Position numbers and translations under genes: made by a program
The notes under the pieces: generated by a model
What the model saw: the letters and a program-made list of their open reading frames with translations, nothing else
Database searches by the model: none
What the model was told of the DNA's origin: nothing
Shown here: piece by piece, positions 69-18,461 of the stretch
How positions within the stretch are numbered: the stretch's first letter is position 1
Layout of the letters: every line of letters begins with the position of its first letter
Assembly: GCF_000012345.1 (NCBI RefSeq)
Contig: NC_007205.1
Location: 60,001-92,000 of the forward strand
DNA length: 32,000 bases
Reading direction: 5' to 3'
Origin: Candidatus Pelagibacter ubique HTCC1062
GTDB lineage: Bacteria > Pseudomonadota > Alphaproteobacteria > Pelagibacterales > Pelagibacteraceae

Positions 69-2219
69 CTATCCAATTGATATTAAAGTAAGATCATCAC
101 TTAATTTTCCAGATTTAGAGCTGTCAATTATTTTTTTACTAATATCTGATAAGTGTTTCTTCGAATCTTTTGTGTAGTTATCTTCAATTATTTCAATTGA
201 ACCTTCAATACCTATTTCTTGTCCTTCAGCATTTAAACTTTCAGACAATCCATCTGTAAAAACATAAAATTTGTTTCCATTTAAAACTTGTTTATTAATT
301 TTATAAATTGATTTATTTTTTTGGTGAATAACCCCCATCGGCGGCGCTTCACTATCAAAATTTTGGTATTTACCATTTTTGTCTCTAATGATAGCTGGTT
401 GATGTCCCGCATTTACCCATGAAACTTCTTTGGTAATTAAATCATATTTTCCAAGAACACATGTCACAAACATGCCTGATGTTTTGGTGAGAAATAAATC
501 GTTATTCATATGAAGCATCATTTCATCTGGATCTACCTGATCTCTTGACATGACTTCAAATAAAGTAGAGGCTTTTGCCATCACCATTCCAGCATGAACT
601 CCCTTACCTGCTACATCTGCAATTATAAAATTAATACTATCATTATGGGGATAAAAACTAAAAAAATCACCTGAAACTTCTCTCGAAGCAATATTAATTC
701 CTTGCACAGGATAATTTTGTAAATCTCTTTTTGGTAAAAAATTTTCTTGAACTTTTACAGCCAAATTTATTTCTTTGGAAATTCTACTTCGCCACTTTTC
801 TTTTTCATTTTCGCTAACCTCAAGCTTGTTCATCAATTTATTATAATAAAGTCCTATTACCCCTCCTGCAGTGAAAGGATCTTGTGGGCCTCTAACAGAG
901 AGATCTCCACTTTCAGACTGTTTTTCAAGGATTGAAATTAAATCATGTTCTACTGAAACTGCATTATGTTCAGCAATATTTAATCCTAATTCCTCTTGTA
1001 AAGGAGTTACTCTTAATGGATAAAAATAATTTAAAATTTTTAAAATAATATAAGATCCAAAAAATGCGAAAGCACCAATTGCTAATATTCCTATAACCTG
1101 GACTTCAATTTGCTCTAACCTTGTAAGTCCTGTTCCTAATTTTTCTAAATCACTGAACAAACCAACTGAAATAGTTCCCCATACACCTGCTCCTAAATGA
1201 ACTGGCACTGCACCTACGACATCATCTATCTCATATTTGTTTAACAGTTCATTTATAAAAATTGCTACGATTGCACCAATAATACCAACAAAAATTGCCG
1301 TAACTGATGTCATTGAATTACAACCAGCTGTTATAGCAACCAATCCTGCAAGAGGACCTAATATTACATAAAATGGATCTGGTTTTTTAAATAATAAAAA
1401 TGAAATACCTAGTCCAGTTAACAACCCAAAAGCAGCAGAAAGAAATGTATTTATCAATATTAATGGCACTGTTTCATCCATTGCTCCATTACTTCCGCCA
1501 TTAAAACCAAACCAACCAAACCATAAAATTAAGGTTCCTAAAACGGCTAACGGAAAACTAGAGCCAGTAAATTTACCTTTATTAGACTCAGAATATTTAC
1601 CAATTCTTGGCCCTAAAATTAATACAGCAGCAAGTGCAATCCATCCTCCAACAGAATGAACAATAGTGCTACCAGCAAAATCAACAAAACCAAGTTCTGT
1701 TAACCATCCAGTATTTTTAATTTCTCCCGTAACAGCCGATAACTGCATTACAGTATCATTCATATTATTTAGATAACTGGATGACCAAGCCCAATGACCA
1801 ACAATTGGATAAATTATGCCAGTTGCAATTATCGTTATTATTAAATATCCATTAAATTTCATTCTTTCAGCCACAGCTCCAGAAACTATTGTTGCAGCAG
1901 TTGCAACAAACATGGCTTGGAACACAAAATATGTCATGTAATCAGCTTTTTCGGTTTTAAAGAAAAAAAGATCTGTTCCAAAAAAACCATTATAACTTGT
2001 CCCAAACATTAAGCCGAAACCAAAAATCCAAAAAACTACAACTGATAAACCAAAATCAGCAGCATTCTTAAGAGCAACGTTAATACTATTTTTGTGTCGT
2101 GAAAGACCAGTTTCCATACACATGAAACCAGCTTGCATGATGAAAACTAATATCGCACAATCAATAACCCAAAGAGTATCAACAAACGATTTTACAGATT
2201 CCAAACTAATACTTTCCAT
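69..2219 (-). CDS. Ammonium transporter (Amt/MEP) domain fused to a C-terminal PP2C/SpoIIE-type serine phosphatase domain
   Basis: The N-terminal ~400 aa is multi-TM with Amt signatures: AGFMCMETGLSRHKNSINVALKN, VDFAGSTIVHSVGGWIALAAVLILGPRIG and the second pore His in VPVHLGAGVWG. A coiled-coil-like linker follows (NKLEVSENEKEKWRSRISKEINLAVKVQENFLP). PP2C/SpoIIE motifs then follow: SGDFFSFY, IADVAGKGVHAG, FTDGLSES and DDLTLISIG. Confidence 0.85.
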   Translation of the reverse strand: MESISLESVKSFVDTLWVIDCAILVFIMQAGFMCMETGLSRHKNSINVALKNAADFGLSVVVFWIFGFGLMFGTSYNGFFGTDLFFFKTEKADYMTYFVFQAMFVATAATIVSGAVAERMKFNGYLIITIIATGIIYPIVGHWAWSSSYLNNMNDTVMQLSAVTGEIKNTGWLTELGFVDFAGSTIVHSVGGWIALAAVLILGPRIGKYSESNKGKFTGSSFPLAVLGTLILWFGWFGFNGGSNGAMDETVPLILINTFLSAAFGLLTGLGISFLLFKKPDPFYVILGPLAGLVAITAGCNSMTSVTAIFVGIIGAIVAIFINELLNKYEIDDVVGAVPVHLGAGVWGTISVGLFSDLEKLGTGLTRLEQIEVQVIGILAIGAFAFFGSYIILKILNYFYPLRVTPLQEELGLNIAEHNAVSVEHDLISILEKQSESGDLSVRGPQDPFTAGGVIGLYYNKLMNKLEVSENEKEKWRSRISKEINLAVKVQENFLPKRDLQNYPVQGINIASREVSGDFFSFYPHNDSINFIIADVAGKGVHAGMVMAKASTLFEVMSRDQVDPDEMMLHMNNDLFLTKTSGMFVTCVLGKYDLITKEVSWVNAGHQPAIIRDKNGKYQNFDSEAPPMGVIHQKNKSIYKINKQVLNGNKFYVFTDGLSESLNAEGQEIGIEGSIEIIEDNYTKDSKKHLSDISKKIIDSSKSGKLSDDLTLISIG

Positions 2220-2322
2220 TTTCTATCAATTTATAAATATCATCTTTAAATTTATTTTAAAATTTATCAATTGTTAAAGATGCGATTAATTAGCTAAAAT
2301 TAATAATAACTCTTAAAATTTC

Positions 2323-4560
2323 TTATTTACCAATTGCAATAATTGTTAAATCATCATCAAGAATATCATTATCTTTTTTAACGCCATCTTCCACAATTTC
2401 TTTTTTTAAACTTTTTAAACGAATTTCTTCTGTCGCACTTGTTAATTCTTTTTGTAATGAAGAGTTTGTGTGTTTTAGGATTAATTCTTTTACACCATCA
2501 ATTCCTATTTCTTGTTTATTTTCATCCATACATTCTGAAAATCCATCAGTAAAACAGTAAATTCGTCCACCATTTAATTTAAAGCTTTCTAATTGATAAA
2601 CACTTTCATCTTTATGCTTAATGACTGCCAAAGGCATTGAGCTTGAAGGATATTCTTTAAAATCTTTACCCACTTTTAATAAAGTTGGCTGATGTCCAGC
2701 ATTTGCAATTTCAACTAAATCTGTTTTCAAATTATATCTTCCAACAATTGAAGTAATAAAGGTACCAACAGGATTAGTTTCTTTCAAATCATTATTCATC
2801 TCTAATAAAATTTCGTTAGGCTTAAATTTTTGCTTAGCGAAGATCTTAAATAAAGTAATAGCTTTTGCCATAACCATTCCTGCATTCACCCCTTTTCCTG
2901 AAACATCAGATAGGGTGAAATACACCTCATCATCATGAAGGTAAAAATCATAAAAATCTCCCGAGATTTCTCTTGCAGGAATATTTAATCCAAATATTGG
3001 ATAGTTTTCTATATCTCTTTTTGGCATTAATCGTTGCTGAACATTCATTGCAAGTTTAATTTCTTTAGAAACTCTATTCTTCCATTTGTTTTTTTGCTTT
3101 TCACTTTGTTCCAATTTGTTCATTATGACATTATATTGCGTGCCAATAATTCCACTTTCAGTAAAAGGATCTTGTGGTGCGCGGCTTGAATAATTGTCTG
3201 ATTTTGCTTGATTAGTTAATACCTCAAGTAATTCGTGCGTGTCCGTTGATGCATTGTGTTCTGAAATATTTAAACCAAGTTCTTCATGAATTTTACTTAC
3301 TCTTAGAGGGAAAAATGAATTAATAGTTTTTAATATTAAATAAGAACCAATGAAACAAAAAGCACCAATTGAACTTATGCCAATTAGTTGAATATATATT
3401 TGTTCTAATCTTGTTTTTTCAACACCCATCAATTCAAAATTTGCAAACAAAGCAACTGCAATAGTTCCCCAAATTCCACATGCTAAGTGAACTGGTATTG
3501 CACTAACCACATCATCAATTTTAATTTTTTCAAGTAATACAATTGTTGAGCCTGAAATAATTCCACCAATACTTCCTATTATAATTGCATGAGTGGGATC
3601 AACATAAGCACAAGAAGCAGTTATTGAAACTAGTCCAGCAAGGGGACCCGTGATCATAAATAATGGCTCTGGTTTTTTTAAAACAATGATACCCATAACA
3701 CTTGAGAAAATAAGTCCAAAGGATGCTGATAAAAAAGTATTAATTAAAATTAATGGAATTTTTAAATCCATTGCACCATTAGCACCTCCATTAAATCCAA
3801 ACCAACCAAACCACAAAATTAAAGCACCTAAAGCTGCCATTGGTGTATTACTTCCTTGAAAAGATTTTTTTTTATCATCTTCTCTAAATCTTCCAGTACG
3901 GTTACCAACTACCAGTAATACTGATAAAGCAATCCATCCTCCTACAGAGTGTACAACGGATGCACCTGCAAAATCTAAATATCCTAATTGACCTAACCAA
4001 CCAAATTTTTCAGCAGGATTTTCAAAATTAAATGCCCAAGACCAGTGACCTACAATTGGATAAAAGAGGCCAGAAACTAATAATGTAATAATTATATATG
4101 AGAAAAACTTTAATCTTTCTGCAACTGCACCTGAGATAATAGTTGCAGCTGTTGCAACAAACATTGCTTGGAAGACAAAATATGTTTGATAGCCTGCAAC
4201 CTTAGTGGTGAAGAAAAAAAATTTGGTACCAAACAGTCCTGATACACTGGTTCCATACATTAATGCGAAACCAAACGCCCAAAAAACTACAACAGATATT
4301 CCAAAGTCTGAAACATTTTTAAGGGCAACGTTAATACTGTTCTTGTTCCGAGACAAACCAGTCTCTAAACACATAAAGCCTGCCTGCATTAAAAAAACAA
4401 GGATTGCACAAATTAAAAGCCAAAAGGTATCTAAATTTGCTTGTAAGATTGCATCTAAGCGAAATTCTAATGCATTTAAAGCTCCCTTATTAGTAAGCTC
4501 TAATTGATTTATGTTGGACTGCAGCTTATTGAGCAATATCTGAGTATCAGCTGCAGTCAT
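2323..4560 (-). CDS. Ammonium transporter domain fused to PP2C/SpoIIE phosphatase (paralog of the 69-2219 gene)
   Basis: Same architecture, colinear over the full length: AGFMCLETGLSRNKNSINVALKN, LDFAGASVVHSVGGWIALSVLLVVGNRTG, IPVHLACGIWG, then SGDFYDFY, LSDVSGKGVNAG, FTDGFSEC and DDLTIIAIG. It has an extra ~45-aa N-terminal extension. Confidence 0.85.
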   Translation of the reverse strand: MTAADTQILLNKLQSNINQLELTNKGALNALEFRLDAILQANLDTFWLLICAILVFLMQAGFMCLETGLSRNKNSINVALKNVSDFGISVVVFWAFGFALMYGTSVSGLFGTKFFFFTTKVAGYQTYFVFQAMFVATAATIISGAVAERLKFFSYIIITLLVSGLFYPIVGHWSWAFNFENPAEKFGWLGQLGYLDFAGASVVHSVGGWIALSVLLVVGNRTGRFREDDKKKSFQGSNTPMAALGALILWFGWFGFNGGANGAMDLKIPLILINTFLSASFGLIFSSVMGIIVLKKPEPLFMITGPLAGLVSITASCAYVDPTHAIIIGSIGGIISGSTIVLLEKIKIDDVVSAIPVHLACGIWGTIAVALFANFELMGVEKTRLEQIYIQLIGISSIGAFCFIGSYLILKTINSFFPLRVSKIHEELGLNISEHNASTDTHELLEVLTNQAKSDNYSSRAPQDPFTESGIIGTQYNVIMNKLEQSEKQKNKWKNRVSKEIKLAMNVQQRLMPKRDIENYPIFGLNIPAREISGDFYDFYLHDDEVYFTLSDVSGKGVNAGMVMAKAITLFKIFAKQKFKPNEILLEMNNDLKETNPVGTFITSIVGRYNLKTDLVEIANAGHQPTLLKVGKDFKEYPSSSMPLAVIKHKDESVYQLESFKLNGGRIYCFTDGFSECMDENKQEIGIDGVKELILKHTNSSLQKELTSATEEIRLKSLKKEIVEDGVKKDNDILDDDLTIIAIGK

Positions 4561-6489: not shown

Positions 6490-6774
6490 ATGAAATATAA
6501 AGTTACAGATAATGAAAATGTAAGCACTGTTTTTCTTACTGGAGAAATAGATATGGATGTTGCAGATGAGGTAAGAGAAATTGTTTTTCCTTTAATTGAT
6601 GCTGGAAAAGAAGTTCATTTAAATTTAAAAGATGTACCCTACATGGACTCTTCTGGTATATCGATAATTATAGAAAGCAATCAAAGAGCTCGAGAGAAAA
6701 ATACTAAAGTTGAACTTAAAGAGGTTAGTCAACCTGTTGAAAAAGTTCTAGCAATGGCAAGAAAGTTTTTATGA
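6490..6774 (+). CDS. STAS-domain anti-sigma-factor antagonist (SpoIIAA/RsbV family)
   Basis: 94 aa with the conserved phosphorylatable-serine context YMDSSGISIIIES (compare DSSGL in SpoIIAA/RsbV). Its 4-nt ATGA overlap with the next STAS gene suggests translational coupling. Confidence 0.8.
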   Translation: MKYKVTDNENVSTVFLTGEIDMDVADEVREIVFPLIDAGKEVHLNLKDVPYMDSSGISIIIESNQRAREKNTKVELKEVSQPVEKVLAMARKFL

Positions 6775-7070
6775 CATACAAAATTACAGAAGAAGACAAT
6801 ATAAGCACCATATTTTTAGATGGTGAAATAGACATGGATAAAACGGATGAAGTTAAGGGAGTTATCTTTCCTGTTATCGACTCTGGTAAAAATGTTGCTT
6901 TAAATCTAAGTAATGTTCAATACATGGATTCTTCTGGTATTTCAGTTTTAATAGAAAGTCATCAAAAAGCCCTTGAGAAGGGAACCAAGCTTGTCATTAA
7001 AGATGTGAGTAAATCTGTTTTAAAAGTAATCATGATGGCAAAGTTAGAACAAATTTTAAATTTGGAGTAA
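6771..7070 (+). CDS. STAS-domain anti-sigma-factor antagonist, second tandem paralog
   Basis: 99 aa with the same YMDSSGISVLIES motif. 54 of 94 aligned positions are identical to the upstream paralog by my hand alignment. Confidence 0.8.
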   Translation: MTYKITEEDNISTIFLDGEIDMDKTDEVKGVIFPVIDSGKNVALNLSNVQYMDSSGISVLIESHQKALEKGTKLVIKDVSKSVLKVIMMAKLEQILNLE

Positions 7071-7077
7071 ATAAATT

Positions 7078-7512
7078 ATGAGTTTAGAAAACTTTAGTCA
7101 TTCAGAAAAAAAAGATTTTTTAGTTAGCTCAGCAAGTTTGAAAGATGTCAGAGCTTTTTCTAGAGATGTTTTTGAAAAATTTAAAATTGATGAAGATTTA
7201 AGAGAAGAGTTAGTTTTAGCGATTGCTGAAGCTGCGCAAAATATAGTTAAACATGCATATAAAGATATGCCTGACACTCAAGATAAAATGGTTGTAAGAA
7301 TATCTTGTAATGATGATGTTCTAGAGATTTCTTTCTTTGATAAAGGCAAACCAGTAGAAAAAAGCAAAGTTAAACATAGAGCGATCGATGATATTAAACC
7401 AGGTGGACTAGGAACATTTTTCATTCAACAAATTATGGATTCAATTAATTTTGAACCAGGAAAAGAACCCTGGATTAATAATTTAGTTTTAACTAAAAAA
7501 TTAAAAAATTAG
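7078..7512 (+). CDS. RsbW/SpoIIAB-like anti-sigma-factor-type serine protein kinase (HATPase_c)
   Basis: 144 aa with an N-box-like EAAQNIVKHAY and a G-box-like KPGGLGTFFIQQIMD. It lies immediately downstream of the two STAS genes, the classic antagonist-kinase order. Confidence 0.75.
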   Translation: MSLENFSHSEKKDFLVSSASLKDVRAFSRDVFEKFKIDEDLREELVLAIAEAAQNIVKHAYKDMPDTQDKMVVRISCNDDVLEISFFDKGKPVEKSKVKHRAIDDIKPGGLGTFFIQQIMDSINFEPGKEPWINNLVLTKKLKN

Positions 7513-13226: not shown

Positions 13227-15770
13227 CTATATTTTACCTGTTTTAATTTTTACAAACACTCTAAAGCCTTTCATTGTAGCACCACCTGCTGTAGATTTTG
13301 GTAATCGCATTGATGATAAAGATGCTTGCTCAACCAATTTTTGATTTCCTAAATTTTCTATAAATTTCAATATATCTTGATCACTTGCAGCTATTCCTTG
13401 AATAGTTAATCTTCTAGATCCATTAAATTCAACTTGATCAAATTTTACACGGTTTGGAACACTTGAGGCTACTTGAGCTAAAATTCTATAAGTTAATTCT
13501 TTATTTGATTTAAGTGTTCTACTTAATTTTAAAGACGTATTAATTACACTAAGTTCTTTTGAAACTATTTTTTTCTGTTTAATAATTTTAGCATGATCTA
13601 TTTTTACAGTTTCATATTGTTTTAATTTTTTATTATAGGAAGCAATATTCCAAAAAGATAAACCAAATAATACCACATAAATTGCAACTACAGCAGCAGT
13701 AATACCCTTGAATGCAAAACCTGAAATTGCTTTCATCTTCTTTTGCTTCATTACATTTGATCTATCTGGAAGAAGATTTATATTTTTAACTGCAGTAACA
13801 AATTTATAATAACCAAAGACATCAAGTTTTCTAAAGGCTAAGCCAACAGAAGTAGATAGATAAGATCTATTTAACTTATTATCTAAAATTTGTTGATACT
13901 GACTTGGAATTTTTAATCCTTCAGTAGGATCAAAAGTGTTAAATCCAACATTCATTAAAATTTTTCTAAAACTTCCTAAATATTCGTCTACATTTTTGAT
14001 ATCTGAAACAACTTTTATGTTTCGAATTCTCTTTTCATATTTAGTCTCAAAATCTTGAATTGCTTGCTTAACTTGAGTAACATATCTTCTAACTAATCCT
14101 TCTTTTTCTTCAGTATCTTGAGAATCTTGTAAAATTTTTCTATCTTGCCCTCTAATAAAAATATCAGTTATTATTGGGTTATTATTATAGAGGATCATTA
14201 AATAATTTTCATCTAATCCAAATTCTAAAACAGCAGTTAAATTGGCATCCTCAGTTTTATTTGTTATTTGATTAACTTGATCAACTGATGACTTTAAAGC
14301 AAAACATTTAACATCTATGATTACAGGATTTAAACCTGCATTTTTAATTATTGAAGTATAACTATTTATATCTGTTAATTTTGATGCAACGAATAAAATA
14401 TCCATTGTATTTTCTTTATCATTTCTATTTATGACTTGATGAAAAATAGAATAATCTTCCAAACTATCTGTTAGTTGAACTAGGTTTTCCCACAATGAAT
14501 TAGTTTCGATTGCTTTATTTAATTCATCTTCTTTCATTAAAGGTGCGGTGACTACTCTTATGATTGCACTAGTTACCGGAATAGCAATTGCTGCATTTGG
14601 TGAAGTTATTTTGTATTTTTGAATTGCTAATACTAATTCTTCTGAAAATTTATCCGCATTATCAATTGGAGTACTATCATCTGTAATGTCGACGGGGTGA
14701 ATATGTAATTTTTCTAACACCCATTGATTAGCTTTGTTACTAGAAACTTGGACTATTCTTATTTCTTTATTTGCTAACTCAATACCAATTATTTCTTCGC
14801 CTTGAACACTAGATTTACCTAATTTGGATTTGAAAAAATTTTGTATTTTTGATTTATAATTTCCAACTTTAGAATTATTAAAAGATGATTTTTTTATATT
14901 TTTAGCAAAATCTGGTTTTTTAATTTTAATTTCCTTAATTTTTCCAAAAATATTTGATAATTTACTTTTTACCTGATCTTGGGTAGATATTTCTGAGTTT
15001 TCATTTAATGGAACACTTGAAGTTTGTGGTTGTGCTTCATTATTACTTTGATTGGTTGTTGAAATATCAATTTGTGAAGATTCACCCTCTTCTGGCTTAA
15101 TATTTTCTTCAATTTTTAATTTTTTACTTTCTTCATGAACATCATCAAACCATTTTTCCAAAATTGGTATTGCATCATCTAAATTTGTTGTTCCAGAAGA
15201 TGAAATTTTTTGTTTACCATCAATATAAAGTCTACCTACCCAGTTTCTTGATTTAAGTTCACCTTTATATTTATCTTGCCTTACATATATATGTAGTCTT
15301 CCATCTTTTTTATGAATTACCTCATGCTCTTTTTTTTGTTCCTCATTATTAGTATTTGATGCACTTACATTTTGCTCAACAGATTCATCTTGAGATTGTA
15401 AAGTTTCTGAATTTTCAGTTAAATTATCATTTTCATTGGATTTTTCTGATTCATTATTATCAGTTTCTTGAGGATTTAAAGTATCAGTTGAATCGTTTTC
15501 AGATTGGTTTTCCTGATCACTCTTTAAAGTCTCTTCATCATTATTAGTATTTGATGCACTTACATTTTGCTCAACAGATTCATCTTGAGATTGTAAAGTT
15601 TCTGAATTTTCAGTTAAATTATCATTTTCATTGGATTTTTCTGATTCATTATTATCAGTTTCTTGAGGATTTAAAGTATCAGTTGAATCGTTTTCAGATT
15701 GGTTTTCCTGATCACTCTTGAGAGTATCTTCCTCTTTATAATCAAATTTGTCTTTATTATCTTCGTCCAT
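13227..15770 (-). CDS. PilM-PilN fusion protein with a ~325-aa N-terminal extension
   Basis: Residues ~325-660 are PilM-like actin-fold (EIIGIELANKEIRIVQVS...). Residues 663-847 are PilN: the INLLPDR motif at about 13764-13790, a TM (ITAAVVAIYVVLFGLSFW) and a periplasmic domain. The N-terminal extension is acidic and Asn/Ser-rich with a duplicated 65-aa unit, followed by a Lys-rich block. Confidence 0.75.
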   Translation of the reverse strand: MDEDNKDKFDYKEEDTLKSDQENQSENDSTDTLNPQETDNNESEKSNENDNLTENSETLQSQDESVEQNVSASNTNNDEETLKSDQENQSENDSTDTLNPQETDNNESEKSNENDNLTENSETLQSQDESVEQNVSASNTNNEEQKKEHEVIHKKDGRLHIYVRQDKYKGELKSRNWVGRLYIDGKQKISSSGTTNLDDAIPILEKWFDDVHEESKKLKIEENIKPEEGESSQIDISTTNQSNNEAQPQTSSVPLNENSEISTQDQVKSKLSNIFGKIKEIKIKKPDFAKNIKKSSFNNSKVGNYKSKIQNFFKSKLGKSSVQGEEIIGIELANKEIRIVQVSSNKANQWVLEKLHIHPVDITDDSTPIDNADKFSEELVLAIQKYKITSPNAAIAIPVTSAIIRVVTAPLMKEDELNKAIETNSLWENLVQLTDSLEDYSIFHQVINRNDKENTMDILFVASKLTDINSYTSIIKNAGLNPVIIDVKCFALKSSVDQVNQITNKTEDANLTAVLEFGLDENYLMILYNNNPIITDIFIRGQDRKILQDSQDTEEKEGLVRRYVTQVKQAIQDFETKYEKRIRNIKVVSDIKNVDEYLGSFRKILMNVGFNTFDPTEGLKIPSQYQQILDNKLNRSYLSTSVGLAFRKLDVFGYYKFVTAVKNINLLPDRSNVMKQKKMKAISGFAFKGITAAVVAIYVVLFGLSFWNIASYNKKLKQYETVKIDHAKIIKQKKIVSKELSVINTSLKLSRTLKSNKELTYRILAQVASSVPNRVKFDQVEFNGSRRLTIQGIAASDQDILKFIENLGNQKLVEQASLSSMRLPKSTAGGATMKGFRVFVKIKTGKI
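15344..15733. repeat. Two-copy 195-bp in-frame tandem duplication inside the pilMN 5' region
   Basis: 15344-15524 is identical base for base to 15539-15719 (181 nt, hand-checked), giving a period of 195 nt or 65 codons. The unit encodes EETLKSDQENQSENDSTDTLNPQETDNNESEKSNENDNLTENSETLQSQDESVEQNVSASNTNN. Confidence 0.9.
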
Positions 15771-15834
15771 AAAACTTATAAATAAAAATTAATATTTAAA
15801 TTGTTAATTGATTCTCTAACACAAAATTAATAAA

Positions 15835-15845
15835 ATTCTAACACA
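15835..15845 (-). promoter_or_regulatory. Candidate extended -10 element (TGTGTTAGAAT read on the minus strand) for the pilMN operon
   Basis: The reverse complement of attctaacaca gives TG-T-TAGAAT, i.e. TGn plus a 5/6 match to TATAAT. It lies ~65 nt upstream of the pilMN ATG (15770). No good -35 sits at 17 nt; TTGAAC at 15862-15867 is 21 nt away. AT-rich context makes chance matches likely. Confidence 0.25.
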
Positions 15846-16138
15846 AGATTATAATCATTATGTTCAAAATGGGTTGAATTTAATAAGAAACTATAAAATA
15901 TTCAATTAAATCAACAGTTTATTAAAATCATTGAAAAAAATTAAATTTAAGATATTTTTTTCTAAATAATATTTTCTCTAACACATTTATCATAATTTTA
16001 TCTTTTTATATTGTGTTAGAAATTTAATATTTTTTTCTATTTTTAAAAAATAAGTAAAATAGCTATTTTTTATTAAAACAACTTTTAATTGTTTTTTGTG
16101 TGAGAGAAAATTTTTTTTGTGTGAGAGAAAAATTTATT

Positions 16139-16149
16139 TGTGTTATAAT
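16139..16149 (+). promoter_or_regulatory. Candidate extended -10 element TGTGTTATAAT on the plus strand
   Basis: Perfect TGnTATAAT within the duplicated context tttatttgtgttataatt. It points rightwards into the palindrome array, with no ORF downstream. Confidence 0.2.
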
Positions 16150-16167
16150 TTTTTTAATTTTTTTTGT

Positions 16168-16311
16168 TTAGAATTATTCTAATATATTTTTTTTTCCTAC
16201 ATTAGAAATATTCCAAACTATTTTTTTTCTCTTTAGAAAGATTCTAATATATTTTTATTTTACTTTAGAAAGATTCTAATATATTTTTTGCAAATTTTAG
16301 AATTATTCTAA
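16168..16311. repeat. Five-unit ~32-bp tandem array, each unit carrying the palindrome TTAGAA-N3-TTCTAA
   Basis: Palindromes lie at 16168-16182, 16202-16216 (TTCCAA, one mismatch), 16233-16247, 16265-16279 and 16297-16311. Spacings are 34, 31, 32 and 32 nt. Each is followed by a TATATTTTT-like tract. Confidence 0.85.
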
Positions 16312-16502
16312 TTTATAAAAAAAAAAAATTATTTTTTTTCTCTAACACAAAAATTTTATTCTAACACATTTAAAAAAAAAAAAAATTATTTCATTTTGTG
16401 TTAGAAAATTAACATAATATTCTTTTTTAAAAAAGTAAGCAAAATCAACGTTTTTAATATTATGAATATAAAACATAAAATGTGTTAGAGCTATATTTAT
16501 TT

Positions 16503-16513
16503 TGTGTTATAAT
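16503..16513 (+). promoter_or_regulatory. Candidate extended -10 element TGTGTTATAAT on the plus strand (second copy)
   Basis: Same 20-nt context as 16139 (tttattttgtgttataatt). It points toward the less AT-rich repeat segment 16690-17114 and would run antisense into the 3' end of the GAF::PP2C gene. Confidence 0.2.
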
Positions 16514-16586
16514 TATTAATATTATCATATTTTTAAAAAAGTCAATAAAATCAACATTTTTTATATTTTCAATAAATTTATTGATT

Positions 16587-16660
16587 TGTGTTAGAGATAA
16601 TTTTAATTTTTATCCTATGTGTTAGAAATAATTTATATTTTTTATGCTGTGTGTTAGAGA
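16587..16660. repeat. Three-unit ~32-bp tandem array starting with TGTGTTAGAR-ATAA
   Basis: Units start at 16587, 16618 and 16650 (spacings 31 and 32 nt): tgtgttagagataatttt..., tgtgttagaaataattta..., tgtgttagagataaatat... Confidence 0.8.
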
Positions 16661-16857
16661 TAAATATGAATATTAACAAAAGCTCAAACAGCCTTACATC
16701 ACTCATCCCTTTGGGATAATATATATAAATTTTAACATTGATCCATCAATTGTTGATTATTGCGGATGGCAATATTAGATTTTGATACAATTTATATTAT
16801 GGTTAAAGCCTAAATCTGGGGACTAAACTCAAATTAACTAATTAAATCTGATTTGTG

Positions 16858-16958
16858 GCAAATTATGAGAGATTTCACTCTAAATTAGAGATTTGACTAC
16901 CAGTATAGGATTTATAGCAAATTATGAGAGATTTCACTCTAAATTAGAGATTTGACTA
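16858..16958. repeat. 59-bp-period direct repeat (42-nt identical core x2, plus a degenerate third unit to ~17026) with an internal palindrome CTCTAA-A-TTAGAG
   Basis: 16858-16899 equals 16917-16958 (gcaaattatgagagatttcactctaaattagagatttgacta). Internal palindromes lie at 16878-16890 and 16937-16949. The third unit (~16968-17026) retains TTCTAA...GATATTTGAC...TTAGAA. Confidence 0.85.
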
Positions 16959-17114
16959 GGATTGCAGGATTTATTTCTAATTATCAGATATTTGACCCAA
17001 AATTAGAATTATTACATGAAACTGGGGGTAATTACTCTTATTAACTGGAAACTATCCCATAAACATTTTTACTCTATCTTAAAGAGTGTAAATAAAAACA
17101 TCTATCCATAATTA

Positions 17115-18461
17115 TTAACCATCAACCGTTACAATTGTTAAATCATCCTTTTGTATTCGACCAGATTTAATTATATCCTCGATAATCTTGTTTAATCTTT
17201 CATGGTTTGGAATTTGTTGATACTTTTTTATATAATCTTTAAATCCTTCTGCCTCTAACATATTTCCTTTAGCATCTCTTATTTCCGTAATACCATCAGT
17301 AAAAATATACATTGAGCTGTTTGAAAAATTAATTTTAGTTTCTTTAAATTTAAACTTAGGAGCAATGCCTAAAGGAGGTCCTGCTTCTTCAAAATTAGAA
17401 AAGTTTCCATCTTTAGAATAAATTAACGGAGGTTCATGACCAGCGTTTGATAAAGTTAATTCTTTTTTGTTACTATCGTAAATTCCAACCAGCATTGTTA
17501 CAAACATTCCTCTTGAAGTAGTTTCACAAATTTCTGTATTTAAAATATCTAAAAGACCTGCTGCAGAAAAATTTGTTTTACTTAAACATCTATAAAGACT
17601 AGATGCTTTAGACATTAGTAATGAAGATTTAATTCCTTTACCTGAAACATCTGCAACTCCAAATCCATAAACTCCATTGGATAATTCTGAAAAATTATAA
17701 AAGTCTCCAGAAACAACCTTGGCAGGAATATTTATTCCAGCAATAGGAAAATTTTCTTTAATGTTTTGAGATAGTAATGTTTTTTGAATCTCTCCAACAA
17801 TTTCTATTTCTTTTTCTATTCTATTTTTAACAATCAAATCTTTTGCCATCTTAGCATTTCTAATTGCTAATGCAGCAGGACCAGATAAAGTTTCTAAAAG
17901 TTTTCTATCGCTTTCTTCAAAAAGTTTGTTGTCTGTTTTTTTATTTAAACAATGAATAACACCAATACATTCATCTGAAACAATTAATGGTGAACATAAA
18001 ACAGAATAAGTTGTAAAATTTGTTTTATTATCTAAATCAAAATAAAATTCTGCAATTTCTCTTACATCCTTTCTAACATCTCCAACTCTTATACATTGTT
18101 TCATGAGTGCTGCTTTTCCCATGACACCTTGAGTAATTGGAATTTCAAAATCTTCTAGATATGCTTGGTGTTTTGATGCAATACATTGAAAGTTTTGCTT
18201 ATCATTATCTATTAAAAAAATGTTAGCAGCTTGAGCATTAATTCTTTTAATAATTAGCTCTAATGAAGTTTGTAGTGTTTCTTTTAAATCAAGAGTTTTA
18301 GCAAACTCCTGGCTCATTTTTGTAACCAATTCTAAGTCTTTAACGCTCGTATTGTCGACTTTTATTGTTTCTGTTTTTTTAGCACCAAAAAACATGTTAT
18401 TTATAAATTGATATTCATTAAATTTTTGATAGTTTTGAGACTGATGGAACTCATTATTCAT
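17115..18461 (-). CDS. GAF-domain-containing PP2C/SpoIIE-type serine phosphatase
   Basis: The N-terminal half is GAF-like (LETLQTSLELIIKRINAQAANIFLID...GVMGKAALMKQCIRVGDV...CSPLIVSDECIGVIHCLNK). The C-terminal half has PP2C motifs: SGDFYNFS, VADVSGKGIKSS, FTDGITEI and DDLTIVTVDG. Confidence 0.8.
   Translation of the reverse strand: MNNEFHQSQNYQKFNEYQFINNMFFGAKKTETIKVDNTSVKDLELVTKMSQEFAKTLDLKETLQTSLELIIKRINAQAANIFLIDNDKQNFQCIASKHQAYLEDFEIPITQGVMGKAALMKQCIRVGDVRKDVREIAEFYFDLDNKTNFTTYSVLCSPLIVSDECIGVIHCLNKKTDNKLFEESDRKLLETLSGPAALAIRNAKMAKDLIVKNRIEKEIEIVGEIQKTLLSQNIKENFPIAGINIPAKVVSGDFYNFSELSNGVYGFGVADVSGKGIKSSLLMSKASSLYRCLSKTNFSAAGLLDILNTEICETTSRGMFVTMLVGIYDSNKKELTLSNAGHEPPLIYSKDGNFSNFEEAGPPLGIAPKFKFKETKINFSNSSMYIFTDGITEIRDAKGNMLEAEGFKDYIKKYQQIPNHERLNKIIEDIIKSGRIQKDDLTIVTVDG

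Follow-up and report, generated by a model that had tools for sequence, protein, structure and literature searches.

The window, by which we mean the whole 32,000-nucleotide stretch of DNA analysed, covers the type IV pilus locus of a SAR11 subclade Ia bacterium, Candidatus Pelagibacter. In the spacer upstream of pilMN, the first gene of the pilus operon, five palindromes of the form TTAGAA-N3-TTCTAA follow one another at intervals of about 32 bp. They match the Irr box (ICE), the operator of the iron regulator Irr. We give an even chance to the reading that the five palindromes are a recently amplified, phased array of Irr-type operators, Irr-box-like by sequence rather than proven members of a regulon. 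What has been shown is that the sequence matches ICE, that the arms are selectively conserved, that the sites are phased and that the array is restricted to one lineage. The array suggests that control of the pilus may be tied to iron status in one Pelagibacter species. Its sites are as follows.

16168 to 16182, no strand assigned: palindrome 1, TTAGAATTATTCTAA, perfect; with its flanks (gTTTAGAA-tta-TTCTAAt) it agrees with 13/14 positions of the ICE consensus
16202 to 16216, no strand assigned: palindrome 2, TTAGAAATATTCCAA, one mismatch in an arm (TTAGAA-ATA-TTCCAA)
16233 to 16247, no strand assigned: palindrome 3, TTAGAAAGATTCTAA, perfect
16265 to 16279, no strand assigned: palindrome 4, TTAGAAAGATTCTAA, perfect
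16297 to 16311, no strand assigned: palindrome 5, TTAGAATTATTCTAA, perfect
16158 to 16316, no strand assigned: the whole 32-bp tandem array, 4.7 copies with 78% matches (Tandem Repeats Finder call at 16167-16316)

The original prediction had reported TTAGAA-N3-TTCTAA five times between 16168 and 16311. Four of these copies are perfect; the second carries TTCCAA and thus one mismatch. The centre-to-centre distances of 34, 31, 32 and 32 bp were reproduced as claimed. An A/T tract, said to follow every site, is clear after units 1, 3 and 4 (TATATTTTT) and looser after units 2 and 5. At no more than one mismatch, the window holds six matches to the palindrome as compared to 0.76 ± 0.97 in shuffled sequences, and none of the 100 shuffles reached six. 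Across 80 further Pelagibacter species, 860 kb from the region of the pilus locus holds 12 one-mismatch matches and no perfect palindrome. More than 20 independent metagenome contigs carry the array, which is therefore no assembly artefact.

The ICE consensus is 5'-TTTAGAA-N3-TTCTAAA-3', the sequence bound by Irr (Bradyrhizobium japonicum; regulon reconstruction, PMC1698941). Irr is a dimeric iron/haem regulator of the Fur family in Alphaproteobacteria. It binds ICE at low iron or haem in Bradyrhizobium and Rhizobium, and it represses if the site overlaps or follows the promoter and activates if the site lies upstream (PMC1698941). Four units of the array agree with the ICE core at 12/12 positions and one at 11/12. 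With the flanks included, the agreement is 13/14 for four units and 12/14 for one. The earlier proposal that a dimeric protein binds phased sites along a single helix face is supported in two respects. The palindrome is the operator of a dimeric Fur-family protein, Irr (PMC1698941), and three boxes at 32-bp spacing are also present at the irr-rubrerythrin promoter of other marine alphaproteobacteria. A spacing of 32 bp is close to three helical turns, so that the boxes would lie on one face of the DNA. Both Fur and Irr are encoded by P. ubique (PMC2864753), and irr is part of the subclade Ia core genome (PMC3448164). In the literature, PilA protein is up 2.16-fold in iron-limited HTCC1062, which hints, weakly, that pili and iron are connected in this clade.

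The array is found in ten contigs with an identical PP2C protein, encoded at the far end of the spacer, and in about ten further metagenome contigs. Nineteen of these have five units and one, L005, has six owing to an extra 32 bp. In L172 the array stops after four units and is followed by unrelated sequence, and L010 has an 89-bp deletion adjoining the array. Polymorphisms in the population fall within the linkers and N3 spacers. The diverged haplotype L120 has five perfect boxes, including the perfect form at palindrome 2. Over the spacer, L209 shows 88% identity; the genes that separate its PP2C gene from the spacer are different ones, and three or more perfect boxes, spaced by 32 bp, are present up to the end of the contig. 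All 36 arm positions of the three L209 boxes are intact, and their N3 spacers and linkers have diverged from the window. In the closest species, L013 and L014 (92-93% PilMN identity), the spacer contains one or two one-mismatch palindromes, which make up three of the 12 found in 860 kb and look like proto-sites. The distribution and the arm conservation among relatives indicate that the array is young, confined to one lineage (one species and its near relatives) and maintained there. Conserved unit number and spacing had been named in the original prediction as a mark of function. Five (rarely six) units and the 32-bp spacing are indeed kept within the species and in L120 and L209.

The five palindromes are units of one tandem repeat and hence not independent events. 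A single founding palindrome is unremarkable because about 5% of random 32-mers of matching composition contain some 6-bp inverted repeat that includes G or C. This leaves room for a neutral minisatellite, in which slippage or unequal recombination multiplied an AT-rich 32-bp unit with a chance ICE-like palindrome that has no protein user. The lineage specificity of the array, its polymorphic copy number (5 or 6) and the other recent repeats and indels in the spacer fit such an origin. What a neutral repeat does not account for is where the changes fall. Within the units, mismatches occur at 1/60 arm positions and at 24/100 other positions (Fisher p = 7e-5), a pattern that argues for constraint on the arms. 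The 36/36 intact arm positions of L209 would have a chance of about 0.01 (0.88^36) at 88% identity. Moreover, the match is to one specific known operator and not to just any palindrome, and perfect copies are absent from the 860 kb of other SAR11 DNA. We therefore regard the minisatellite as rather unlikely, although it deserves to be kept in mind. The array has the sequence and the arm constraint of an ICE/Irr box; binding by Irr and any effect on the pil genes are our inference.

The palindrome pair has iron-related contexts elsewhere. A metagenome scan for two perfect palindromes 14-20 bp apart returned at least 120 loci on contigs of 21% to 66% guanine plus cytosine (GC) content. Counted among the matches listed, about eleven loci are the SAR11 PP2C–pilMN spacer; 14 high-GC loci have a box pair 34 bp apart before an FTR1 iron permease gene; 24 adjoin a FUR-family gene and/or rubrerythrin; and 12 have the order fabB-fabA, irr, boxes exactly 32 bp apart, rubrerythrin. 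Eight of these last 12 have three perfect boxes (32+32 bp) and four have two. Further high-GC loci among the matches listed have a box pair 29 bp apart before a FUR-family gene, which is followed by an ABC-type ATPase gene, putatively sufC (its Pfam match is to ABC_tran only). The Fur-family gene of the irr–rubrerythrin loci carries the JGI name "Fur family iron response transcriptional regulator". The L091-type loci of this class, the sequence of which was read, have a TTGACT hexamer between boxes 2 and 3. On long contigs of alphaproteobacteria with 55-57% GC, irr is followed by a single ICE-like box and then by rbr-CCG-DUF3501.

Several observations weigh against an Irr operator array. P. 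ubique has a divergent Irr ortholog whose motif is a prediction, with one or two sites per genome (PMC1698941). No irr gene is present in the window. The array lies 400-540 bp from the pilMN start codon. Its neighbours are pilMN and a GAF-PP2C phosphatase gene, with no iron gene adjoining, and it is thus not placed at an iron-gene promoter. The spacer is plastic, with duplications, the 89-bp deletion in L010 and 59-bp repeats, and AT-rich tandem repeats arise readily. The 32-bp-phased irr–rubrerythrin loci carry the submitter labels Rhizobiales, Rhodobiaceae and Hyphomicrobiales (metagenome-assembled genomes), not Pelagibacter; a search for rubrerythrin homologs likewise gave no Pelagibacter-labelled protein. 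None of the 42 other Pelagibacter species whose full spacer was recovered has the array, or a perfect palindrome there, and the array is therefore dispensable for pilus control in the clade. Beyond the near relatives, then, the conservation named in the original prediction does not hold. Finally, the palindrome is not exclusive to Irr, because phage-like marine contigs (L103, L117, L152 and about 20 more; L112, L127, L133) carry two to four copies of the TTAGAANNNTTCTAA palindrome with no iron gene nearby. At least 24 loci among the matches listed belong to one phage family with 72% identity to pelagiphage HTVC027P.

The phage copies raise the question of whether the sites are operators of another dimeric regulator with the same specificity, such as a phage-type repressor or a SAR11 helix-turn-helix protein, unrelated to iron. 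The paired boxes of the HTVC027P-related family, the several other phage-like contigs with three to four boxes and the integrase-like domain of PilMN (described below), which shows phage-derived parts at this locus, are consistent with such a regulator. None is encoded in the 32-kb window, however, HTVC027P itself has no box in the matching region, and Irr is the only characterised binder of the ICE sequence. Phages may simply use the Irr or Fur of the host; either they do so, or other repressors share the palindrome specificity. We judge a regulator unrelated to iron to be unlikely. In the HTVC027P-related family an invariant TTAACAAATGCAGT lies between two boxes. A blastn comparison of the spacer with phage genomes gave no match.

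If the palindromes are Irr operators, a mechanism can be proposed. One Irr-box-bearing 32-bp unit would have been duplicated in tandem to five to six copies in the spacer upstream of pilMNOPQ-pilBC. Irr, active at low iron or haem, would occupy the sites cooperatively on one face of the DNA, three helical turns apart, in the geometry of the irr-rubrerythrin promoter. This occupancy would block or reshape transcription and nucleoprotein assembly in the spacer and thereby make pilus expression responsive to iron. An extended -10 element (TGTGTTATAAT, 16139-16149) would start transcription about 10 nucleotides before palindrome 1. With this element on one side and minus-strand boxes (16341-16368) on the other, the array could block transcription from either flank. 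In a scan for promoters and terminators, 15 promoter-like sites were found where 14.8 are expected, with no terminators and nothing above shuffles; the scan is uninformative since the count matches the expectation. Alternatively or additionally, the array might soak up Irr, of which so small a cell would have few molecules. A role purely as an Irr decoy, by titration, fits the data equally well.

The deeply conserved element of the spacer is not the palindrome but a second motif, TTGTGTTAGAG, which includes the TGTGTTAGA 9-mer. The original prediction had treated the TGTGTTAGA motifs as mere flanks of the array. The window has 11 exact TGTGTTAGA copies and four one-mismatch variants, and all 15 sites lie within 15815-16658. 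In 544 kb from the 42 other species, 332/335 exact copies are confined to the PP2C–pilMN spacer. The TTGTGTTAGAG boxes number about eight invariant copies per species, usually exactly eight, in more than 40 Pelagibacter species (L011-L090 spacers). Their layout is fixed across species and the sequence between them drifts. Three boxes 21-23 bp apart are directed towards pilMN, the closest of them some 20 bp from its ATG, followed by one more box in the same orientation (two in some species). Distal to these are two or three oppositely oriented boxes in pairs about 21 bp apart, with two conserved AAAAAAGTCAATAAAATCAACA blocks in between. In the lineage of the window, the box module is partly duplicated and the palindrome array lies between the copies. 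The sites in the window and the two genes that bound the spacer are as follows.

13227 to 15770, minus strand: pilMN fusion gene, 847 residues, first of pilMN-O-P-Q-B-C (Pfam PilM_2 and PilN)
15141 to 15326, minus strand: pilMN codons 149-210; the encoded domain is nearly invariant and shows homology to the N-terminal domain of tyrosine integrases
15815-15823, 15837-15845 and 15977-15985, minus strand, and 16012-16020, plus strand: pilMN-proximal TGTGTTAGA boxes, conserved across species
16097 to 16149, plus strand: three variant boxes that face the array, two of them TGTGTGAGA (16097 and 16118) and the third TGTGTTATAAT (16139-16149)
16341 to 16368, minus strand: two boxes pointing into the array from the other side, 16341-16349 and 16360-16368
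16397 to 16658, plus strand: distal boxes at 16397, 16481, 16503 (TGTGTTATAAT), 16587, 16618 and 16650, the last three 31-32 bp apart
16429 to 16555, plus strand: blocks made of an A-run and AAAATCAAC (16429-16449, 16535-16555; another such block is at 15902-15916), which lie between the boxes and are conserved across species
16850 to 17026, no strand assigned: 59-bp tandem repeat from the repeat scan, 2.7 copies, with an internal inverted repeat (AGAGATTTCACTCT...)
17115 to 18461, minus strand: GAF-PP2C (SpoIIE-type) phosphatase gene, the far boundary of the spacer (Pfam scan)

The TGTGTTATAAT at 16139-16149 is a perfect extended -10 (TG-n-TATAAT) located 18 bp upstream of palindrome 1. In this box and in that at 16503-16513, TAGAG has mutated to TATAAT, which gives the extended -10. 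The WATCAA core of the AAAATCAAC blocks resembles an IHF site and is a candidate only. A role of TGTGTTAGA as a DNA-uptake sequence was considered and rejected, since 332/335 copies sit in one spacer. In the literature the 9-mer was found only in primers, and a paper on SAR11 structured RNAs does not mention the spacer. The duplicated modules of about 170 bp that were said to flank the array were confirmed in part: 70-nucleotide copies (67-76% identical) are present at 16004, 16389 and 16495, and a 57-nucleotide inverted pair, 16076-16132 and 16335-16391, brackets the array.

The palindromes and the boxes share a TTAGA core, the array is bracketed by inward-pointing boxes, and the three boxes at 16587-16658 have the same 31-32-bp period. 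The palindromes could on these grounds be variant sites of the TTGTGTTAGAG-box nucleoprotein assembly, bound by the same factor, possibly the N-terminal domain of PilMN. The part of the box that is invariant across species includes TGTG, however, which is missing from the palindromes, and by eye the 32-bp box unit is about half identical to the palindrome unit, near the chance level for AT-rich DNA. The arm-type domains of lambda-type integrases bind asymmetric sites as monomers, not 6-N3-6 palindromes. A shared factor is in our view very improbable.

Two further explanations concern the array as RNA and as a replication element. Were the array transcribed, it could act as a row of short hairpins; we hold this to be highly improbable. 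RNA folding gave z = -2.2 and -6.2, the latter for the minus strand, and the N3 'loops' vary and the 'stems' are constant. Such z-scores are accounted for by the repeated palindromes, being expected of any repeated palindrome with runs of A and U; the stems consist of six A/U-rich pairs and show no compensatory changes. A structured RNA was rejected as a candidate. Rfam had no match at the gathering score in the window and none even at E <= 1 in 15700-17200, promoter and terminator signals were not above shuffles, and there are no tRNAs in the window. An iteron, centromere or replication-origin array (an iteron-like array was among the original suggestions) would agree with regular phased repeats in an AT-rich spacer. 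We give it almost no credence, and the context effectively refutes it. Rep, ParA and ParB are absent from the Pfam scans of open reading frames called in the window. Cumulative GC skew runs straight through without a switch of sign, the genes on both sides are co-oriented, and the spacer keeps its position in a chromosomal pilus locus across more than 40 species. The suggestion of DNA wrapping likewise found no support. In a wedge model with Bolshoy-Trifonov angles, the curvature estimate is ordinary (47th percentile of the window), with an end-to-end to contour ratio of 0.935 as compared to 0.912 ± 0.053 in shuffles.

The boxes stand beside a gene with an integrase-like domain. Residues 149-210 of PilMN form a 62-residue segment that is almost invariant across SAR11 and lies between hypervariable, low-complexity acidic linkers. 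With phmmer against 1.84 billion representative proteins, this segment matches residues ~5-75 of proteins of 411-436 residues, with E = 1e-11 to 2e-5 and 44-54% identity. In these homologs the Pfam family Phage_integrase scores above its curated cut-off only in P0261 and more weakly in the rest, and in P0289 a SAM-like core-binding domain scores weakly. In lambda- and P4-type integrases, this N-terminal position is where the arm-type DNA-binding domain lies. An AlphaFold (AF2) model built with eight homologs (pLDDT 88.5) has four strands, one short and three long, followed by a long helix. Foldseek gave no significant match for this model; the best full-length TM-score was to 3jtz (TMq 0.53, 23% identity, E = 1.1), the arm-type binding domain of the HPI integrase. 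For a single-sequence model (pLDDT 64.6), all Foldseek matches were non-significant. The domain had no match in Pfam at E <= 10 other than DUF6538 (E = 0.18, two members), and none in a sequence search of the PDB. For the integrase P0283 alone, no relative was found in viral contigs. We infer that this domain is a candidate binder of the TTGTGTTAGAG boxes.

Its integrase relatives have repeats of their own. About six copies of TCGTACAT(A/T)T (TCGTACATAT) lie upstream of the L216 integrase (940-1280), the last 16 bp before the ATG; they surround an apparent tRNA 3' fragment, where ARAGORN calls no tRNA. In L215 (520-585), TTTGACACCT is present twice with one inverted copy just upstream of int, and a tRNA-Leu follows int. 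These 10-bp repeats look like arm-type sites. In L218 (1264-1794), a distant PilM begins directly with the domain, and the gene upstream is another one, for a T2SSE ATPase. Its 530-bp upstream spacer contains four copies of TCTAACACAA and three of TATAACACAAGAT; the association of boxes with PilM thus outlives gene order. On marine phage contigs (L211:3977-4324, L213:1828-2178), a 115-residue protein consists of the N-domain and a C-terminal hydrophobic, predicted transmembrane helix. This would be a membrane-anchored version of the domain, like PilMN.

Taken together, the boxes and the domain allow a broader and more tentative reading of the locus, which we consider doubtful. The spacer would be a domesticated regulatory system of the integrase/attP kind, in which PilM-N has exapted an arm-binding domain that recognises the roughly eight TTGTGTTAGAG boxes and acts as a membrane-anchored autoregulator or as a tether between the chromosome and the base of the pilus. 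A coastal SAR11 species would then have inserted the phased array of five to six Irr boxes in its middle, so that assembly of the complex, and with it piliation, would depend on iron or haem status.

SAR11 is the most abundant heterotroph of the surface ocean and has almost no non-coding DNA and very few regulators. Pili serve in attachment and DNA uptake and as phage receptors. If the array is bound by Irr, it would connect pili to iron limitation, which exerts major control over ocean productivity, and it would clearly exemplify how a streamlined genome gains new regulation when an operator is amplified in tandem. The species-specific array would also multiply the genomic Irr sites several-fold over the predicted one or two (PMC1698941). 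In the literature searched, we found no description of a tandem Irr operator of five to six units in a pilus regulatory spacer. The TTGTGTTAGAG boxes with the integrase-type domain on PilM likewise appear to be undescribed there and seem the more novel lead; they are a concrete candidate for control of the SAR11 pilus.

The spacer itself (15771-17114) is 1344 bp long with 19% GC, in a window of about 30% GC, and lies between the pilMN start codon and the GAF-PP2C stop codon. Intergenic DNA in SAR11 is usually minimal, and a spacer of this length is unusual. The order PP2C-spacer-pilMN is kept in 42 other Pelagibacter species of GTDB with a complete spacer. The PilM-N core of the window is 93% identical to proteins named P. 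ubique, P. giovannonii and Pelagibacter sp. The operon continues from pilMN with pilO/P-like genes, the pilQ secretin, the pilB ATPase and pilC; the other pilus genes of the window are the prepilin peptidase pilD, PilY1, minor pilins and two pilins. The 59-bp repeat occupies the slot of a conserved gene for a 100-residue membrane protein (no Pfam match) that is found in most other species.

A number of other features were observed at the locus. The acidic N-terminal linker of PilMN is encoded by a 195-nucleotide tandem repeat (15339-15739; 2.1 copies, 97% identical), and the protein differs among strains by one 65-residue unit (847 or 782 residues). Some species (L062, L075, L080, L082, L083, L088, L089) have 2.5-3.9 kb between PP2C and pilMN. 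These inserts encode a multi-pass membrane protein of 409 residues and a 174-186-residue protein with a helix-turn-helix-like motif (LQLPRETVRRKVL; no Pfam match in the one member scanned), and that of L075 encodes a 213-residue protein with a GCGTG motif, methyltransferase-like in appearance. Single-cell-genome contigs (L012, L016-L018, L021 and many more) often end about 0.5-1.3 kb upstream of the PilMN core, in or at the spacer, which seems to be a general assembly breakpoint in SAR11. Around the pilus genes (69-4560, 6490-7512, 17115-18461) are two ammonium-transporter-PP2C(SpoIIE) fusions, two STAS proteins, an RsbW-like kinase and the GAF-PP2C. This set resembles a partner-switching module, possibly coupling nitrogen status to pili.

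Several known systems invite comparison. Pseudomonas aeruginosa PilR has tandem sites upstream of pilA and works with sigma-54. The PilR sites are similar in being several short repeats upstream of a pilus gene; their sequence is different, and the window has neither PilR nor PilS. The centromere and iteron arrays of plasmids (the 43-bp repeats of F sopC, R1 parC) are also built of tandemly repeated units of about this size, in regular phase and with a short palindrome in each. The window, in contrast, is a chromosomal pilus locus with no partition or replication genes and no change of skew.

The lambda-type attP and its intasome, in which arm-type sites are interleaved with IHF sites beside int, are an analogue for the TTGTGTTAGAG boxes and not for the palindromes. 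Both have boxes of 10-11 bp in both orientations with tandem pairs about 21 bp apart, and some 20 bp separate the last TTGTGTTAGAG box from the start codon of pilMN, which encodes an integrase-type N-domain. Integrases with a PilMN-like N-domain also have their own upstream 10-bp repeats (L215, L216). Unlike an integrase, the rest of PilMN is PilM_2 and PilN, with no core-binding or catalytic domain, and its DNA binding is putative; no tRNA or att-like core is present in the window.

For the palindromes, Fur-box arrays are one parallel, as repeated sites for dimers of the Fur superfamily with potential for cooperative, extended occupancy. The GATAAT hexamers of Fur overlap or abut, whereas the sites in the window are discrete, three helical turns apart and of another sequence. 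The nearest system to the palindromes, by sequence as well as function, is the ICE/Irr box. It differs in that the window has five to six head-to-tail tandem boxes compared to one to three at the other loci examined. The array is also in a pilus-operon spacer and not before an iron gene, occurs in one species only, and has T instead of A in the right-hand flank of four units. Nevertheless, the two have the same 6-N3-6 palindrome down to the additional T at its left end, Irr is encoded in the host clade, and the phased multi-box arrangement recurs at the irr-rubrerythrin promoters with three boxes at 32+32 bp.

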